64,000 bases of DNA from positions 1,422 through 65,421 of the forward strand of contig CAKQGH010000005.1 of the NCBI GenBank assembly GCA_934232895.1, in the 5' to 3' direction. This DNA is from an uncultured Alphaproteobacteria bacterium (GTDB taxonomy: Bacteria > Pseudomonadota > Alphaproteobacteria > Rs-D84). The position numbers were made by a program, and so were the translations under genes. The notes under the pieces are model-generated. The model saw nothing but the letters and a program-made list of their open reading frames with translations, had not been told where the DNA came from and did not search any database. This document shows positions 3,843 through 37,425 of the stretch, piece by piece. How positions within the stretch are numbered: the stretch's first letter is position 1; each line of letters begins with the position of its first letter.

Positions 3843-6344
3843 ATGAATCGCATAAAAAAACAAATTGTAAATTTGCGTAAATCCACACCGCAAAGTGTCC
3901 AGTGGTTGTTGCTGGGCGCGGCGTTTATTGTGGTGCTGATTTTAATGACCATGTTGATTGGTGGCCGCGGGAACAAGCAAATTGCGACCGACGATGATGC
4001 GCCAATCGCATTGCGCACGGTTCCGGAAACGGAATCTGTGAATTGGGGGAATATTCGCGTTGGTACCACCGAAAAAGACAGCATAAAAATATTTGCATCT
4101 GCCCCGGCCAAGGTTATCAAGGTGCGTCTGAACCAGGATGTGCCGGGTTTTCGTGTTTCTGAAACATGTGGTCGTATGGCGCAAATAAACGAAAACACAT
4201 CGTGCACGATATCAATGGAATATGCGCCAACCGCGGCGGCCGATGTAATAACAACCGCATTGTTTATTGATTGGCGCGGCGCGGATCAACCCGACAAAAT
4301 GCAGAAAACCGATAAAATCGTATTGGTGTTGGGCGCCACCGCCCCGGAACAATCAAAAACCACAACGACCGGTTCCAATGCCGATACCACCAAGGCCCCC
4401 AGCGCGGCCGCCACAAAAAGCGAGCCCGCCCCCGCCCCATTTATTGACACACCCGCACCGACCAAGGCCGATATAAAACAAGAAATTGCAACAATTGCCC
4501 CATCGGATCCATTTACCGATGATGACGATGACTATGTCGCGCCGGCGCCCGCGAAAAAGGCCGAGCCCGCGGTTGTTGAACGCACCAATACCAAAAAGAC
4601 CGAGGCATGTTCCGCGTTTGCATTCCCGGGATATAATTCAACCGGCACACAAATCGGGTGGATAAAGCCCGAAAATGGCGCGTACTATTTTCATCCGTTT
4701 TCGGATAAAGAATGCAAAAATCCAACCGGGACATATAATCCCGACACCGGTTTAATTACCGATATAAAAAATGCCGGTAAAAAAATTGGAACCGATGCCG
4801 AACATATTGGGTACACCGCAATTGCATCAAATGGTGCGTTGCCGCAATTATCAAACCCGGTCCAGAAAAATAAAAACCGCGCATATCAATTGACCACCGA
4901 TGAATTGATGGCAATGGATGGCGCCATGTCTGGGGCCGAGGACGCATCGCGTTTCCGCGCCGGCATTACCATGAACATAAAACCAGATGACACGGTGTTT
5001 GGCACCAGTGGTATGGACGCGGTATTTTCATCCGACCCATTTGACCGTACGTTTGTGTTGCGCCAGTATAAACCAATTCCGGCCACCATTGTGTCCGAGG
5101 TTCGTGCCGACCCATCGTTATATGATGGAAAAGAAAAAAGTTTACCGGTACGCGCGACGGTTGACCGAAATGTATATTCCGACAATGGTCGCACAGTTGT
5201 TATACCGGCGGGCACATTGATGTTGGGATATGTCACGGGTGATATTCCGGGGCCATATAAAACAATTGGTCGTATGGATATTCGTTGGTACCAATTTATA
5301 TTGCCCAGTGGCGTTGAATTCAATTTTGATGGTGGTGGCGACACCGACCCATTTTCGGGCGATTCCCAGGGGCGCGTTGGTGTTCCCGGATACGGCAGTA
5401 CCGATTATGTGGAACAATTTGTTATGCCATTGCTGACATCGCTGGTGCCGGCGGCGGTGAATATGATTGCGCCAATATCGGACCGTTTTGTAAACCAAAT
5501 TGATTTGGATAATAACACCGTTGTTCAATCGGGTACCGTGCGTTCATCGGAATTGGCGAAAAATGAAATCATTACCGCATGGAACCAGGTTGCCCAGAAA
5601 TTAGTTGTAGATATGATGGACAACACCGTTCCGCCGTTTTCAATTGCGGCCGGCACACGCATAACCGTGTTTCCACCAACCGATTTGGTTTTAACCTGTG
5701 GCAGTGACGCCAGTAAAAAATGTTCTGTATCGACATTGGAACAAACCACCGGTTATGCCAATTTGAATCGTCGCAATCAGCGCGCTGATTGGAAACACAG
5801 TGGCGAGGTCGATTATGCCGATGGTTCATGGGTTGGCCAGGTTCGTTCATTTAACCTGAGCAGTGATTACTGCAAACAGGACAAAGATGGTCTGTGGGAT
5901 GTGAACGAGGACAACATCAGCGGCCTCTATTCCGAAGGGTATGATTACAGAACGATATTGATGTATTGCAAATCGCTGAATTACCAGGCGAAAAACAATG
6001 CGCGCCAGGATGCGGTGTACAAAAACCAACAGGAACAGTTCAAATCGACATACGAGGCCAGCGGCAGCGCCGGCGGCGTGTCGGGGCAAACTGTGTCGGG
6101 CAATCAGACATATAACACTGAAATATTGGGACTGAAATATAACGATGATGGTTCAATTCAAAATCCATTTGAATCATCGGCCAAAGGCGAAGAACAAGCC
6201 GCCCAGGCCATCATTACGTGCGAGGATGGCACCGCCCCAGATGCAAACGGATGCTGTACCGGTGAAATCTACACCGACATGGGCGAAGCCGGATTCAATT
6301 GTTGTCCCGAAACGGGTGGCGATTGTTTCCCGCCGATATTGTAA
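3843..6344 (+). CDS. virB10: VirB10/TrbI-like T4SS protein, unusually long (833 aa)
   Basis: The N-terminal TM helix is WLLLGAAFIVVLILMTMLIGG, followed by a Pro/Ala/Thr-rich linker. The TrbI-type core reads PATIVSEVRADP...LPVRATVDRNVYSDNGRTVVIPAGTLMLGYV...RMDIRWYQFILPSGVEF...DSQGRVGVPGY...AAGTRITVF. Extra N- and C-terminal modules are present. Confidence 0.85.
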   Translation: MNRIKKQIVNLRKSTPQSVQWLLLGAAFIVVLILMTMLIGGRGNKQIATDDDAPIALRTVPETESVNWGNIRVGTTEKDSIKIFASAPAKVIKVRLNQDVPGFRVSETCGRMAQINENTSCTISMEYAPTAAADVITTALFIDWRGADQPDKMQKTDKIVLVLGATAPEQSKTTTTGSNADTTKAPSAAATKSEPAPAPFIDTPAPTKADIKQEIATIAPSDPFTDDDDDYVAPAPAKKAEPAVVERTNTKKTEACSAFAFPGYNSTGTQIGWIKPENGAYYFHPFSDKECKNPTGTYNPDTGLITDIKNAGKKIGTDAEHIGYTAIASNGALPQLSNPVQKNKNRAYQLTTDELMAMDGAMSGAEDASRFRAGITMNIKPDDTVFGTSGMDAVFSSDPFDRTFVLRQYKPIPATIVSEVRADPSLYDGKEKSLPVRATVDRNVYSDNGRTVVIPAGTLMLGYVTGDIPGPYKTIGRMDIRWYQFILPSGVEFNFDGGGDTDPFSGDSQGRVGVPGYGSTDYVEQFVMPLLTSLVPAAVNMIAPISDRFVNQIDLDNNTVVQSGTVRSSELAKNEIITAWNQVAQKLVVDMMDNTVPPFSIAAGTRITVFPPTDLVLTCGSDASKKCSVSTLEQTTGYANLNRRNQRADWKHSGEVDYADGSWVGQVRSFNLSSDYCKQDKDGLWDVNEDNISGLYSEGYDYRTILMYCKSLNYQAKNNARQDAVYKNQQEQFKSTYEASGSAGGVSGQTVSGNQTYNTEILGLKYNDDGSIQNPFESSAKGEEQAAQAIITCEDGTAPDANGCCTGEIYTDMGEAGFNCCPETGGDCFPPIL

Positions 6345-6930: not shown

Positions 6931-7273
6931 ATCGGGGGCGTACAATGATGATTATTGCATTTTCAACGCACACATCGAAAATGCTGCCACGCCTGTTGTG
7001 CCGGCGGTTTCGGCACTGTGCACCGATACTGTGCATGCGTGGCACGCGACCATTTGTTATGTATCAATTCGTGCGGCGTGGATGCGTGTCAAAAATACGA
7101 CTGGCACGACGCGATATAAATATACTGCGCGCGCACGGTTGGGAATTCATACGCGTGCCGCGCGCCCCAACCCCGCGCGAACATTGGCAACACGCGTTTT
7201 CGTGTGTTGATATGACAAAACGCGCCATCGGAATGCACGCGCCAATGGTTCAAACACCAAATGGCCTGTATAA

Positions 7274-7300
7274 AAAAACCGCCCCGTTGGGGCGGTTTTT
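7274..7300. terminator. Bidirectional intrinsic terminator
   Basis: The sequence is aaaaaccgcccc-gtt-ggggcggttttt, a GC-rich stem flanked by A- and T-runs. Confidence 0.7.
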
Positions 7301-8413: not shown

Positions 8414-8523
8414 AAAAAATACCACCGGAACGAATTCAGGTGGTTGGAGTTTGATAACAATATTAGGAATTGCGTTGCTTATTCGGTATATTCACAACAC
8501 TCCAACCACATAACATGGTTGGA
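8414..8523 (-). promoter_or_regulatory. Structured leader RNA element L1 with terminator, upstream of the 7455-8390 gene
   Basis: In mRNA sense the segments are TCCAACCA (A), TGGTTGGAGT (B), ACTCCAACCA (C), then ACCACC-tGAAttcgTTCc-GGTGGT followed by a U-run. B can pair with either A or C, and C overlaps the terminator stem. It is homologous to 36951-37056. Confidence 0.5.
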
Positions 8524-8595
8524 ATTTTATCGTCTTGGATTGACGCCTAATATGGGTTATCAAGCCCAATGACAGAACGCCTGTCATCAAATAGA

Positions 8596-8624
8596 ATGAT
8601 AACGAATGTGCGTGAATATCACAA
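8596..8624 (-). promoter_or_regulatory. Putative sigma70-type promoter driving leader L1
   Basis: On the minus strand, TTGTGA (8624-8619) and TATCAT (8601-8596) are separated by a 17-nt spacer. Confidence 0.45.
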
Positions 8625-31366: not shown

Positions 31367-31612
31367 ATGTTTTACGTTTATTTAATCAGAAGTATTTCAA
31401 ATCCGAGTCAACGGTACATTGGTATGACCGATGATTTACAAAAACGGATGAAACAACACAATTCTGGTTATTCGTTTCACACATCAAAGTACACACCATG
31501 GCAACTGATAAATTATTTTGCTTTTTCAAGTCGCCATGCCGCCGGCGAATTTGAAAAATACCTGAAAACGGGTTCTGGTCAGGCATTTGCAAACAGACAT
31601 TTTTGGAATTAG
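31367..31612 (+). CDS. GIY-YIG nuclease family protein (UPF0213-like, 81 aa)
   Basis: The sequence is MFYVYLIRSISNPSQRYIGMTDDLQKRMKQHNSG. Confidence 0.85.
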   Translation: MFYVYLIRSISNPSQRYIGMTDDLQKRMKQHNSGYSFHTSKYTPWQLINYFAFSSRHAAGEFEKYLKTGSGQAFANRHFWN

Positions 31613-31771: not shown

Positions 31772-31886
31772 GGGAACTGAATCAGTGGGGACACTGGTTC
31801 GGGGCTGTAGCAAGCCTAATTATCCGGTGCAGACCAATTTGGAACATCGTTAGTCCGTGATTCCTGTGGTTTTGTGTCGTTATTTA

Positions 31887-32009
31887 TCCCTGACTTATAC
31901 AAGTCGGGGAGCTGTCTGTTATACAACAGGGTTTTACCCGAAAGCGACAGAATCATTGATAATTTGATTGCTAACTCCCCGACCGCCTGTCTTTGCTGGG
32001 CGGTTTTTT
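31887..32009 (+). promoter_or_regulatory. Structured leader element L3 with terminator, upstream of the lipoprotein pair
   Basis: The segments are TCCCTGAC (A), GTCGGGGAG (B) and CTCCCCGAC (C, a perfect complement of B). They are followed by ACCGCC-tgtctttgct-GGCGGT and a T-run ending 22 nt before the ATG. The layout matches L1 and L2. Confidence 0.4.
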
Positions 32010-32031
32010 CATTATAAAAAAGGATCCAGGA

Positions 32032-33315
32032 ATGAAAAAAATAACAATTTTGACATCAATCCTAGCATTGGCCGCATGTGGCGGCGGTTCTGGCGGGAAA
32101 GCGCCTGATATACAAATACCAAAAGAATTACAAACAAGTGCAATCAATAGTGTCACTATTGATCAAGCTGCCGCAAATAAGTCAATGGTAAATTTTGTAG
32201 GAAACCGCATTCCTGAGGCATACACCGCCGATGCCACAGACGAAGAAAAATTGACCATCGCAACAAATCTACTAAATAATATGCACACTACATTACAGGC
32301 TTTATCCGATCTGCAGGTCTCTGGAGACGCGGACGCATTGCGCCAGTATATAGCCAATCATCAAACAGATGTAAAAAATGCACTTAGCCTGTATTTTGCA
32401 GATTTTACACCATCAAGCGATCCAGACCATTTTTATATGAATAACTACAACCGGATTTCATCGGATAAATTGAACAACTTTGAAAAAAAGAATGGTTTTG
32501 TGTCCGGCACACTTGGACATAACGACATGGACTTTTACAACACAAGTGACCAACCAGTAAAAATACAATTTAGCAACGGAAAAATCACTGGTATAGATTT
32601 TGATAACGGTCTATTCAAACAACTAAGCCCAGATGGCACCATACGAATAGAAGAAGATTACACAAAAAATCCAGATTATGACCCGACCACAGATCCAGTA
32701 TATGGTGCGTTTACCGGCAAGGCCACATTATTGGGGAACACGGTAGGGCTGCAATATTCTGATTTTGGCTACGTTCTGTCCAATGGCACAACAACATATT
32801 CAGATGGACATACAGAACAAAATAATGATGGCCATATATTTTTTGGCGGATATATACCACATGAAATAAAGGCCACAGAAAGCGGTACAATGACATTCAA
32901 TGGGACCGCCATAGCAGTTATAAATTCGCATACATACGACAGCGACAGTGGCGTTGACAATTTTGACACAATGACATCCACAGTAAACGATGCAAAATTA
33001 ACCGTCAATAATGGGAATGAAGTATTAACCGCAAATTTCTCAAAAGCACAAAATCCATGGTATGACGTGATTATAAGCAAAGACAGTGCAACACTTGTAA
33101 ATTCAGACAGCGAAATTCCTGTTGAATATCAGGTAAAAAATACCACTGGTTCAACCAGCCCAGAAAATGATTTTTTGCGCGCTAAATATTATGGGGACAA
33201 TGGCCAAATATCAGAAGCGGTTGCAGGTTCACATTTTTATACCACTGGCGCACTTTCTGACGAACGCATAACGCATGAAATTGATGCCGACATTGGGTTC
33301 GGCGGAAAATTATAA
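32032..33315 (+). CDS. Surface lipoprotein with a TbpB/fHbp-like C-terminal beta-barrel pattern (427 aa)
   Basis: The lipobox is LALAAC followed by GGGSGG. C-terminal patterns are YSDFGYV, MTFNGTAIAV, AKLTVNNGNEVLTANF and AKYYGDNGQISEAVAGSHFY, ending IGFGGKL. Confidence 0.85.
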   Translation: MKKITILTSILALAACGGGSGGKAPDIQIPKELQTSAINSVTIDQAAANKSMVNFVGNRIPEAYTADATDEEKLTIATNLLNNMHTTLQALSDLQVSGDADALRQYIANHQTDVKNALSLYFADFTPSSDPDHFYMNNYNRISSDKLNNFEKKNGFVSGTLGHNDMDFYNTSDQPVKIQFSNGKITGIDFDNGLFKQLSPDGTIRIEEDYTKNPDYDPTTDPVYGAFTGKATLLGNTVGLQYSDFGYVLSNGTTTYSDGHTEQNNDGHIFFGGYIPHEIKATESGTMTFNGTAIAVINSHTYDSDSGVDNFDTMTSTVNDAKLTVNNGNEVLTANFSKAQNPWYDVIISKDSATLVNSDSEIPVEYQVKNTTGSTSPENDFLRAKYYGDNGQISEAVAGSHFYTTGALSDERITHEIDADIGFGGKL

Positions 33316-33329
33316 AAAAGGAGCAAATA

Positions 33330-34523
33330 ATGAAAAAAATAACAATTTTGACATCAATATTGGCATTGGCTGCATGTGGTGGGGTTTCTGGCGGGAACGG
33401 GCCAATTCCCCCATCAACAACAATTTCAGAACCAGAAACCCCAAATATAACAGTGCCAGCAGGGGCGCAAAACAGTAATCGGGCAATTACTTCTATGAAA
33501 TCCGAAATATTAGTTCCGAATAATTCCGGCACACACAGTATGACAGGTCGTTCATCAACCACACATATAAACGGTAAAGACTATACATCATACAGATTGG
33601 ATGATGTCAAATTTGAACAGTCTGGTTTTGACGGCGATTCTACAGATGAAACATATCTGAAATTTGGGCTGGACGAAAACGGAAAAATCATAAGATTGGA
33701 TGTGTTTAATGGGGATGAATCAAGAACACAAACCATCACTCGCGATTCAGACGATGCAAAAACTTTTTCTGAAACGTCCAAAAAATATACAATCAATTAC
33801 GGAGATAATGCCTCATACGAGATAAATACATCTATGGATACAAATCTGGATGATGACCTGGAATTTATATTAACGAAAGAAAACAATCCAGATAAAGACG
33901 CAATCCTGGCGGCCTATAAAGACAAAAAGTACACAACAGCAGATGTAAAAATAACTACAACATCAGACATGTATGGAAAAACATTATCCAAACCACTAAG
34001 TTATGCGGATTTTGGTTATGTCACACAAGTTTATGGAAACGACACAAACGGTGTTCATACAGTAATAACTGGTGGATACGAAATCAAAGCAATCGCCGAA
34101 GAAAATTTTGCATCAACAGATATGACTTTTACGGGCACGGCCATCGGGGCAATATCTGCCGAGACCAGCGACGGATACGATTCAAAACGAATAAAAACAG
34201 AAAATGGCACGGCAACTTTAACGTTCCAGGACGGCAAAGAAACTCTGACCATGCCATTTGACGATTACTACACGGTCACAGCCACCCGTGCACGTGGGGA
34301 ATCAGACCCGACACTGGAATTCACGGATTATAAAGGAACCGATGATAAATTTAAGTTTAACGAAACAACCCTAAACAACCGAGAAAATACCAGACTTCAC
34401 TTCCGTACGGGGTACTATGGCAACAATAACAATCCAACTGAAGCCATCGGTACTATATCCGTAGAACAAAACAACAACGGGGCACGCATTGGCTTTGATG
34501 CCGCATTTGGTGGCACAAGATAA
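33330..34523 (+). CDS. Paralogous surface lipoprotein with a TbpB/fHbp-like C-terminal pattern (397 aa)
   Basis: The first 18 residues (MKKITILTSILALAACGG) are identical to the upstream gene. Patterns are YADFGYV, MTFTGTAIGA, ATLTFQDGKETLTMPF and GYYGNNNNPTEAIGTISV, ending AAFGGTR. Confidence 0.85.
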   Translation: MKKITILTSILALAACGGVSGGNGPIPPSTTISEPETPNITVPAGAQNSNRAITSMKSEILVPNNSGTHSMTGRSSTTHINGKDYTSYRLDDVKFEQSGFDGDSTDETYLKFGLDENGKIIRLDVFNGDESRTQTITRDSDDAKTFSETSKKYTINYGDNASYEINTSMDTNLDDDLEFILTKENNPDKDAILAAYKDKKYTTADVKITTTSDMYGKTLSKPLSYADFGYVTQVYGNDTNGVHTVITGGYEIKAIAEENFASTDMTFTGTAIGAISAETSDGYDSKRIKTENGTATLTFQDGKETLTMPFDDYYTVTATRARGESDPTLEFTDYKGTDDKFKFNETTLNNRENTRLHFRTGYYGNNNNPTEAIGTISVEQNNNGARIGFDAAFGGTR

Positions 34524-36580: not shown

Positions 36581-36655
36581 GGTCCCATCGTCTAGCGGTC
36601 AGGACACCAGATTCTCATTCTGGGAACAGGGGTTCGATTCCCCTTGGGACTGCCA
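36581..36655 (+). tRNA. trnE: tRNA-Glu (anticodon CUC)
   Basis: The cloverleaf is 75 nt. The acceptor pairs GGTCCCA/TGGGACT, the anticodon loop is TTCTCAT, the T-arm is AGGGG-TTCGATT-CCCCT, and CCA is encoded. Confidence 0.92.
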
Positions 36656-36847
36656 AAATAAAAGTGCCCTGCGACAGCGGGGTAATTTTATTTTGCTGTA
36701 TGTCACATGGGGAATCGAACCCTTTGCCGCGCCACGGCATGCCCCACCACAATACCAATGAATATATCCGCCAATGATGAATATTTCTTATTCGCCTTGG
36801 GTTTCGGGCAAGCCCCACCCAACCCATCCGGCGATTTTTATTTTGCG

Positions 36848-36877
36848 TTGGATTTTTTGATTATTTTATTCTAGAAT
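36848..36877 (+). promoter_or_regulatory. Putative sigma70-type promoter for leader L2 and the XRE gene
   Basis: TTGGAT (36848-36853) and TAGAAT (36872-36877) are separated by an 18-nt spacer. Confidence 0.4.
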
Positions 36878-36950
36878 ATCCGCTGTAATAGGCGACCTAT
36901 TATACGAGAATGATAAGCTCGGCAAAAACCGCCTGCGCAGGCGTAAAATG

Positions 36951-37056
36951 CTCCAACATCGTCGGTTGGAGGGTGGTCGAATATATTGAATAGACCAACA
37001 TGTGTTTTTGCATGCTTATCAACTCCAACCGCCTTGATACATCGGGCGGTGTTTTT
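36951..37056 (+). promoter_or_regulatory. Structured leader RNA element L2 with terminator, upstream of the XRE regulator gene
   Basis: The segments are CTCCAAC (A), GGTTGGAG (B) and CTCCAACC (C), then ACCGCC-loop-GGCGGT and a T-run. Long blocks are shared with L1: GTTGGAG, GAATATA..GAATA, and TTATCAA(A)CTCCAACC. Confidence 0.5.
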
Positions 37057-37080
37057 ATATATAACCCCAAGGAGCAAAAT

Positions 37081-37425
37081 ATGTCTGGGCAAACACGCAA
37101 TGCAAACGATTTCAACACCAGGCTGGGTCGCGCCATAGCCGTGCAACGCGCACGTATGGGCATGTCACAGAAAGATTTATCTAAATTACTGGAGGTGTCG
37201 TTTCAACAAATTCAAAAATATGAATCCGGCGGCAATCGTTTCCCGGTTGCGCGCTTGCATGAACTGTGCAAATTATGGGACATTGGCATCGGCACCATTA
37301 TTGGCGAGACCGAACAAGAATACGCCCACGACAAACAAATGACCATGCTGATTCAAAATATATATAAACTGTCGCGGGACAATCGGAAAATAATTACCAC
37401 ACTGGTTGATGCATTGGCGAAATAG
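37081..37425 (+). CDS. XRE-family helix-turn-helix transcriptional regulator
   Basis: The RBS is aaggag. The HTH reads MSQKDLSKLLEVSFQQIQKYESGGNR. Confidence 0.85.
   Translation: MSGQTRNANDFNTRLGRAIAVQRARMGMSQKDLSKLLEVSFQQIQKYESGGNRFPVARLHELCKLWDIGIGTIIGETEQEYAHDKQMTMLIQNIYKLSRDNRKIITTLVDALAK

Follow-up and report, generated by a model that had tools for sequence, protein, structure and literature searches.

The window analysed here, a stretch of 64,000 nucleotides (nt) from an uncultured Alphaproteobacteria bacterium of the lineage Rs-D84 (contig CAKQGH010000005.1, assembly GCA_934232895.1), carries a structured leader, which we call L2, in front of a gene encoding an XRE-family helix-turn-helix (HTH) protein. 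L2 is the 5' leader of this gene and a real repeated RNA element, not a chance terminator; it spans about 175 nt, from a predicted transcription start at about 36884 to the end of a U-run at 37056. The evidence assembled below indicates that it is probably a cis-acting leader switch, belonging to a divergent branch of the c4/sRNA-Xcc1 class and choosing between a terminating and a read-through fold. From 5' to 3' the order is promoter, hairpin H1, hairpin H2 with segment a1 in its loop, segment b1, hairpin H3, an A-rich linker, box A, box B, hairpin P2, hairpin P3 (whose loop is segment b'), segment a', box C, terminator, Shine-Dalgarno (SD) sequence, and gene (Table 1). A preliminary description of this DNA had located boxes A, B, and C, the loop, the terminator, and the promoter correctly; it missed the 5' half (H1, H2 with a1, b1, and H3) and the long-range pairings. 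The gap between the U-run and the start codon of the XRE gene is 24 nt, which leaves no space for a separate promoter. The window holds five occurrences of the box B octamer, GGTTGGAG, or its complement, where 0.66 would be expected, and none of 100 shuffles reached that number.

Table 1. Parts of L2 and its relatives in the window. R1 is the covariance model described in the text; aa, amino acids.
Feature	Position	Strand	Basis or remark
Sigma-70-like promoter, TTGGAT-18-TAGAAT	36848-36877	+	read from sequence
H1, 5'-terminal hairpin, GUAAUAGG-cga-CCUAUUAU	36885-36903	+	sequence; matches hairpin 1 of the phage P1 c4-a1b1 motif
H2, hairpin region	36906-36919	+	encloses a1
a1 (S1), UGAUAAGC	36911-36918	+	complementary to a' (37014-37021)
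b1 (S2), GCAAAAAC	36922-36929	+	complementary to the P3 loop (37004-37011)
H3, palindromic hairpin CGCCUGCGCAGGCG, then A-rich linker UAAAAUG	36930-36950	+	sequence
Box A, CTCCAAC (CUCCAAC), anti-P1/anti-antiterminator strand	36951-36957	+	A:B pairing; joint change with B and C
Box B, octamer GGTTGGAG, 5' strand of P1	36964-36971	+	sequence, pairing
Box B as 9-nt P1 strand, GGUUGGAGG	36964-36972	+	pairing
P2, hairpin UGGUC/GACCA with conserved loop GAAUAUAUUGAAUA	36974-36997	+	all five P2 pairs covary
P2 loop, GAATATATTGAATA	36979-36992	+	sequence
P3, hairpin	36999-37014	+	all five P3 pairs covary
b', P3 loop, GUUUUUGC	37004-37011	+	overlaps both P3 arms
a' (S1'), GCUUAUCA, strand joining P3 to C	37014-37021	+	complementary to a1
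Box C, CTCCAACC (RNA CUCCAACC), 3' strand of P1/antiterminator strand	37023-37030	+	B:C by RNAalifold; ninth pair covaries
Intrinsic terminator, ACCGCC...GGCGGT, and T-run	37028-37050; T-run 37052-37056	+	stem takes the last 3 nt of C
SD, AAGGAG	37069-37074	+	sequence
XRE-family HTH gene, 114 aa, ATG at 37081	37069-37425 (SD through gene end)	+	Pfam HTH_3, 6.5e-08
L1, paralogous copy 5' of a 311-aa secreted-protein gene (8390-7455)	8416-8624	-	82.8 bits with R1
L3, divergent variant; lipoprotein ATG at 32033	31778-32010	+	R1 only 12.4 bits, E 0.81; architecture read directly from sequence

That L2 is one copy of a repeated RNA element, as the preliminary description had held, follows from its distribution and from its covariation. 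Searching one genome per species for the exact pattern GGTTGGAG, N5-9, GAATATANNGAATA, we found at least 120 loci, each in an uncultured proteobacterial or alphaproteobacterial metagenome-assembled genome (MAG) from an animal or human gut. Record titles among the matches listed include Candidatus Enterousia, Alphaproteobacteria, proteobacterium, 'Rickettsiales bacterium', and RUG/RGIG bins; Ca. Enterousia belongs to the order Rs-D84, in which most genomes are below 1 Mb (PMC12306168). Several loci per genome are common, with at least five in one assembly among the matches listed. We obtained 124 distinct elements, and the core alignment (A2) holds 122 sequences. A covariance model (R1) built from 122 homologues to escape the fixed box B, and run over the collected loci, recovered eight further copies that lack the exact pattern. 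The family counts at least 130 copies, spread over roughly 90 MAG assemblies. Literature searches on the motif, on Rs-D84 together with RNA, and on the literal sequences found nothing relevant. Within the window, L1 is a true homologue of L2, as had been proposed: its core (about 8530-8410 on the minus strand) has the parts in the same order, with a covarying inner hairpin and with UGACAG-gcguu-CUGUCA as the counterpart of H1, and R1 gives L2 63.8 bits and L1 the score in Table 1. L1 and L2 agree in about half of their aligned columns, and every stem has compensatory changes. The secreted protein encoded after L1 has no assigned function and retains its leader in other species, where the proteins that follow two further elements (L015 and L038) resemble it.

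The copies share a predicted transcription unit of their own, which supports the promoter and terminator that had been suggested for the element. A promoter matching at least 8 of 12 positions is present in 114 of 120 elements, and in 87 of those 114 the -10 box begins 30-34 nt 5' of H2, with H1 between the start site and H2. H3 is a small hairpin ending in GAC(G/A) and followed by (U/A)AAAA in the homologues. A terminator, i.e. a hairpin with a U-run, is found in 108 of 121 homologues, and its stem includes 3-4 nt of box C in 102 of the 121. A clear open reading frame (ORF) with an SD follows 98 of the 124 elements; the median distance from box C to its start is 50 nt, and this proximity again leaves no space for a separate promoter. 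The 97 downstream proteins include small XRE-type regulators (14 HTH_31, 11 HTH_19, and 9 HTH_3, which are overlapping families); most of the others have signal peptides and no Pfam match (secreted proteins, lipoproteins), and there are isolated cases of ABC exporters (two), a GT2 glycosyltransferase (one), and a tyrosyl-tRNA synthetase (one). The family is not mainly phage-borne, since scanning the viral contigs of IMG/VR with the Enterousia pattern returned only four true copies (three canonical, one variant) and one chance match in a coding region. In four places, tandem leaders stand back to back before a single gene, each with its own a and b sequences (L066:2804-3074, L014:6905-7240, L070:786-1149, and L074:1629-1814). 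An element on a 58.7-kb IMG/VR contig (L127:5470-5700; R1 57 bits) has canonical a1/b1, P2, and P3, an altered box C, and no U-run terminator; it may be a terminator-less variant, and lies 5' of a gene for a 392-aa protein without assigned function.

The core structure is supported by several lines of covariation. First, RNAalifold finds B:C as the closing helix of the 122-sequence alignment, and 87 sequences have GC as the ninth pair of this helix (P1), 21 have UA, and 6 have UG. Second, 94.6% of the cells in B:C, P2, and P3 are paired, and pairing falls to 31-52% when partners are shifted. Third, the statistical test of covariation that had been proposed for L1 and L2, carried out on the family alignment, counted 252 double-change cells, whereas shuffling gave 79.9±12.5 and none of 500 shuffles reached the observed value. 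All ten pairs of P2 and P3 covary (five each), which extends to the 122 sequences the covariation of the inner hairpin first noticed between L1 and L2. Fourth, A:B is paired in 87.7% of cells, changes on the A side being mostly C-to-U or A-to-G and keeping a wobble pair. Fifth, A, B, and C vary jointly in the variant copies lacking the exact pattern: CUCCUGACC, GGUCAGGAGG, and CCUCCUGACC in L039; CUUCUGCC, GGCAGGAGG, and CCUCCUGCC in L017; ACUCCUGAC, GUCAGGAGG, and CCUCCUGAC in L058; and, with an unclear A, B GGGAUUGGAG and C CUCCAAUCCC in L014. The sole fixed part of the boxes in these copies is the junction-proximal GGAG/CUCC. We had considered box B as a mimic of the 16S 3' end (GGUUGGAU) or of an SD, an idea that was dropped because its GGUUGG part covaries away in the variants. 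The P2 loop is invariant in the pattern-selected set, and copies found by the model read GAAUA-N3-4-(G/A)AAUA(A/C); in L014 the loop bears an inserted hairpin, as it does in sRNA-Xcc1.

The 5' half of the leader is tied to this core by two long-range pairings. Segment a1 lies about 50-58 nt 5' of box B and can pair with the strand that joins P3 to C; b1 lies 2-6 nt beyond a1 and is complementary to the P3 loop. When the upstream region of each element was scored against its own core and compared with the upstream regions of all other elements, the complementarity of a1 to a' was 17.1 for cognate and 10.5 for non-cognate regions, with 92% of the elements in the top 5% of the non-cognate scores, and that of b1 to b' was 17.4 against 11.9. 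Each copy bears its own "address", made of a1/b1 and the matching a'/b'. The G-rich hairpin H2 holds a1 in its loop in 120 of 121 homologues. The b1:b' pairing and a full P3 are mutually exclusive because b' overlaps both arms of P3.

The same scaffold can be recognised in L3, which corresponds to the third copy implied by the preliminary description: the architecture is there, and the sequence is divergent, as its low R1 score indicates. Its boxes (A UCCCUGAC, B GUCGGGGAG, C CUCCCCGAC) form a compensated triad, and its long-range partners pair UAGCAA (a1) with UUGCUA and AAUUAUC (b1) with GAUAAUU. It also has a TATAAT promoter, H1, H2 with a1, and a terminator, and its P2 is branched, unlike that of L2. 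Judging from these parts, we regard L3 as a divergent relative of L1 and L2 built on a common scaffold. The weaker look-alike at 7137-7172, which had been put forward as a degenerate fourth copy, is not supported: it gives no R1 match at E<=10, and its GTTGGGGCG partner is part of an ordinary terminator (7275-7300).

Two sets of pairings in these leaders compete: A:B with B:C, and B:C with the terminator. In the region from A to the U-run, the two folds are nearly equal in energy, with medians of -27.1 kcal/mol for the B:C fold and -29.1 kcal/mol for A:B plus terminator, the latter being lower in 75 of 107 elements. When the full leader is folded, the closed form is the predicted ground state: in 107 of 110 minimum-free-energy structures, L1 and L2 included, the long-range helices enclose H3, the A:B hairpin, and P2, and are followed by the terminator. 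In this fold the b1:b' helix takes the place of P3, and B:C is present in one of the 110. Since P3 and the ninth B:C pair covary, the alternative fold made of P1 (B:C), P2, and P3 is also under selection. The folding predictions describe a two-state RNA, whose predicted ground state would terminate 24 nt before the XRE start codon.

We propose the following working of the switch: 1) in the OFF state, a1:a' and b1:b' would close the molecule, A:B would be paired, C would be left free, and the terminator would form, ending transcription about 25 nt before the ATG; 2) in the ON state, B:C would become P1 of a c4-like three-way junction (P1-P2-P3) and occupy the base of the terminator stem, allowing read-through into the gene; and 3) a trigger would free a'/b' and B from a1/b1 and A. 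We infer from these folds that the switch would control termination in vivo and that XRE read-through would require the c4-like fold. The weakest step is the trigger. By analogy, it is most likely an RNA-level event rather than a small molecule, because a1/b1 and a'/b' are RNA-RNA recognition sites in c4, where a1/b1 have been proposed as competitor sites. Candidates would be the RNA itself in processed form, binding nascent a1/b1 in trans, or a processing of RNase P type at the 5' end of P1. The preliminary description had hesitated between a cis-acting attenuator or riboswitch-like element and a family of small RNAs (sRNAs) of about 170 nt. A cis attenuator of the antisense-type c4/sRNA-Xcc1 class would make both ideas partly right; the part that finds no support is the metabolite riboswitch, given the heterogeneous genes and relatives that use RNA-RNA pairing.

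A number of points weigh against this interpretation. Termination and read-through are predictions of the folding models. A:B is a stable hairpin and is the first of the two to form as the leader is transcribed, which weighs on the timely formation of B:C without a factor. The conservation of box B and of the P2 loop is inflated, the search pattern having required both, and the invariant P2 loop has no assigned role. The segments a2 and b2, which in c4 are second copies at the downstream ribosome-binding site (RBS), were sought in the 92 nt after the terminator, where cognate and non-cognate scores are the same (11.3 and 11.2 for a, 12.8 and 12.8 for b); a 7-nt b2-like match in L2, GCAAAAU at 37073-37079 between SD and AUG, is indistinguishable from chance. 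With a2 and b2 absent, the c4 analogy may not extend to mechanism. Lastly, L1 and L2 searched against Rfam at E<=10 give no hit to the sRNA-Xcc1 family (RF02221), nor do eight further loci match it at E<=1, so that the kinship rests on intermediates and on architecture.

Several other readings have to be set against a cis switch. We consider it fairly unlikely that L2 is primarily the gene of a trans-acting antisense sRNA like C4 or sRNA-Xcc1, with a constitutive terminator, a released and possibly RNase P-processed RNA using a' and b' elsewhere, and an incidental position before the XRE gene. Precedents exist in the 88-nt sRNA-Xcc1 (PMC2996969) and in C4, a processed RNA of 77 nt (phage P1 record); the element owns a promoter and a terminator, and its a' and b' are copy-specific like the specificity determinants of C4. 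However, no a2/b2 follow downstream, and a search of the window for trans targets of a' and b' of L1 and L2 found none besides each copy's own a1 and b1. Moreover, only about 20-25 nt separate the U-run from the downstream genes, too few to hold a promoter, so that these genes must be expressed by read-through, and both box A and the overlap of C with the terminator, which a constitutive terminator would not need, are conserved and covarying. A trans-acting RNA would in any case be compatible with the cis switch rather than exclusive of it.

The complexity of the fold raises the question of a ligand. In a riboswitch, the P1-P2-P3 junction with its invariant P2 loop and GGAG/CUCC would bind a small molecule or second messenger, stabilise B:C, and turn many genes on. 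A conserved pseudoknotted fold with invariant unpaired nucleotides, P1 pairs that are conserved near the junction and covary distally, ON and OFF folds of near-equal energy, and the many copies per genome, some of them in tandem, would all be in keeping with this. Many and tandem copies per genome are also seen for second-messenger riboswitches. We nevertheless judge such a riboswitch improbable: the 97 downstream proteins share no pathway, the nearest relatives (sRNA-Xcc1 and c4) act by RNA-RNA pairing, L3 retains the scaffold yet swaps P2, and the variable a' and b' sit where a ligand pocket would be expected.

Even less probable, in our view, is a protein-dependent attenuator in which an RNA-binding protein, sitting on the two AAUA repeats of the P2 loop or on the A-rich linker and box A, would set the balance of A:B and B:C. 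The loop is an invariant stretch of 15 nt with a direct repeat GAAUA...GAAUA; a search of 1 Mb of sequence for a complement to it returned nothing but the antisense strand of the element itself, and its two variable positions have no mutual information with the tested columns (relative to A, B, and C only). These traits could suit a protein, yet there is no candidate protein and none consistently adjacent, and the loop is replaced in L3 and interrupted by a hairpin in L014 and sRNA-Xcc1. Finally, a DNA-level repeat (a miniature inverted-repeat transposable element [MITE], a REP-like or an integron attC-like sequence) or a leader-peptide attenuator is hardly credible, even though repeated copies of the element occur between genes, integron cassettes harbour sRNA-Xcc1, and short ORFs overlap A/B in L1 and L2: the copies have a fixed orientation to gene, promoter, U-run, and SD, they tolerate G-U pairs, and L1 and L2 have diverged at most non-stem positions, lacking the near-identity of recently transposed repeats. 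The same divergence, with its compensatory stem changes and the fixed orientation, speaks against a known repeat or MITE as the source of the likeness, the explanation that the preliminary description had reserved. Two specific candidates were rejected in this context. CTCCAAC/GTTGGAG resembles the attC core, RYYYAAC/GTTRRRY, and the variant A, B, and C boxes break that consensus; the short ORFs over A/B differ in position and frame between L1 and L2, have no SD, and face a P2 arm whose length varies by 1 nt, which leaves no conserved leader peptide.

If the cis switch is accepted, it may be carried one step further. The processed c4-like RNA of a locus might act in trans on a1/b1 of its own nascent transcripts, making a self-reinforcing, locus-specific switch, and many copies would then provide heritable ON/OFF (phase-variable) control; we hold this extension to be quite unlikely. 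If true, such trans feedback would let reduced-genome gut symbionts switch single genes for surface proteins or regulators without DNA rearrangement or protein regulators. At a more general level, the element represents a large unannotated RNA family in an uncultured and almost unstudied order (Rs-D84/Ca. Enterousia) with reduced genomes, and, as it precedes the genes of many secreted or surface proteins and of small HTH regulators, it may have a major part in regulation there. It also links RNAs that have been filed separately, namely phage P1 c4, c4-a1b1, and sRNA-Xcc1. It may show an antisense module turned cis attenuator, with a2/b2 lost and with an anti-P1 box and a P1-overlapping terminator present, a cis role raised only in passing by Weinberg et al. 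2010 (PMC2864571).

The genomic surroundings of the three copies add some observations. The L2 promoter is directly preceded by a tRNA-Glu(CUC) and the terminator of that tRNA (36665-36684), together at 36581-36684 on the plus strand. On the other side, the minus-strand segment 37429-38554, immediately 5' of gyrA, encodes an APH-like protein of phosphotransferase fold and a MerR-family regulator; these neighbours are convergent with the XRE gene, which is therefore monocistronic. L3 precedes two tandem lipoprotein genes (32033-33315 and 33330-34523) with an identical signal peptide, and the region 5' of it holds a tRNA-Gln and then an ORF (31370-31612) that by eye resembles a small GIY-YIG type. 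Close to L1, an 833-aa protein (3843-6344, plus strand) has a TrbI/VirB10 domain (Pfam, 9.5e-16), which may point to a locus for type IV secretion or conjugation close to the secreted protein that L1 would regulate.

Empty Rfam scans (at gathering thresholds, nothing in the window falls on the element) had first suggested a wholly new family, a view that was revised after the best-scoring homologue, L034, matched RF02221 with 37 bits (E 2e-5, gathering score 53) over model positions 1-87, comprising the common P1, P2, P3, and joining strand. This sequence is below the gathering score, as the family is as a whole, L1 and L2 having no match. Conversely, we drew RF02221-like sequences from viral contigs, of which L170, L230, L235, and L167 pass gathering at 61-64 bits, and R1 detects the bona fide member L235 (35.1 bits, E 9e-6) and, with lower scores, the others at the correct place and strand; a blastn search of a plasmid collection with the Xcc1 consensus gave chance hits only. 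The members that we inspected in IMG/VR (L235:1560-1830, L224, L243, L230, L167, and L170) have an upstream hairpin loop, CUCAAAA, that can pair with the joining strand UUUUGAG, and a next segment that can pair with the P3 loop. Both segments recur, as a2-like and b2-like sequences, beside the SD and AUG of the downstream gene, the b2-like one lying between SD and AUG. The genes that follow encode Bro-N and KilAC/ORF6N antirepressor-like proteins by the look of the protein sequence, no family search having been run. This layout of a1/b1 and a2/b2 is that of phage P1 c4 and suggests that sRNA-Xcc1, which Rfam files outside the C4 clan and papers describe as a virulence sRNA standing on its own, may instead regulate the gene next to it in the manner of c4.

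sRNA-Xcc1 has been described as a discrete trans-acting sRNA with mapped ends (PMC2996969), and stands 5' of symE in integron cassettes (bioRxiv 10.1101/2025.06.18.660453) and 5' of an ORF6N gene in APSE phages; it is known from Xanthomonas campestris, prophages, and genomic islands, and is multi-copy in Xylella and Aeromonas. The leaders share with it 1) the three-way junction with a 9-bp P1, a P2 internal loop GAAUAnA...AAUAA (the AAUAnA...UAA signature), and a P3 hairpin; 2) the joining strand UUUnGAn, with a short run after P1; 3) an upstream a1, set in a hairpin loop, that matches the joining strand by complementarity, and a b1 that does so with the P3 loop; and 4) a co-oriented position 5' of genes for small DNA-binding or regulator proteins, with multiple copies in some genomes. 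They differ in having lost the inner P2 hairpin, save in the L014-type copy, in lacking a2/b2 at the downstream RBS, in the added anti-P1 box A and the terminator overlapping P1, and in their AT-rich composition, their gut alphaproteobacterial MAG hosts, and the many secreted- or surface-protein genes downstream.

The comparison with c4 itself gives a similar picture. RF01695 has no hit on L1, L2, or L034, and the c4-a1b1 model (RF03163) has a weak one on L1 (8549-8600, minus strand; 16.2 bits, E 0.1) that falls exactly on H2/a1/b1; both are below the gathering scores of 45 and 46.7 bits, respectively, which the phage P1 control passes with 68.8 and 51 bits. The order of parts is nonetheless that of c4: promoter, hairpin, hairpin with a1 in its loop, b1 (the a1b1 motif described by Weinberg 2010, PMC2864571), a further hairpin, and then P1-P2-P3, where the P3 loop holds b' and the strand from P3 to P1 holds a', a' and b' being complementary to the upstream a1 and b1. 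The annotation of phage P1 lists a1, b1, C4 RNA with b' and a' in these two places, and a2 and b2 at the RBS of icd. In several c4 RNAs a terminator overlaps the 3' half of P1, and it has been proposed that c4 might sometimes act in cis (Weinberg 2010, PMC2864571 Additional file 1). We noticed in phage P1 an unannotated box, ACGCCC (L248:225-255; NC_005856 48324-48354), 8 nt 5' of the mature 5' end of C4; its complement GGGCGU, with which it could pair, lies in the 5' strand of the C4 helix P1, and the box is a possible counterpart of box A. Unlike c4, this branch has a P2 with a large conserved loop instead of a short hairpin capped by a stable tetraloop, has no a2/b2 targets overlapping the RBS, precedes genes other than icd/ant and mostly other than phage antirepressors, and is chromosomal and multi-copy, compared with one c4 per prophage. 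RNase P processing is a trait of c4 and is not known for the leader family.

The leaders also resemble classical attenuators, such as those of trp type or the expression platforms of OFF-type riboswitches, in having mutually exclusive pairings of near-equal energy (A:B, B:C, and C with the terminator) directly 5' of a gene, one of them an intrinsic terminator. They differ from these in having no leader peptide and no ligand-enclosing P1 between A and B, and in that the choice is tied to two copy-specific long-range pairings, a1:a' and b1:b'. The family is a variant of the known c4/sRNA-Xcc1 leader RNAs and of terminator attenuators, not a categorically new system.

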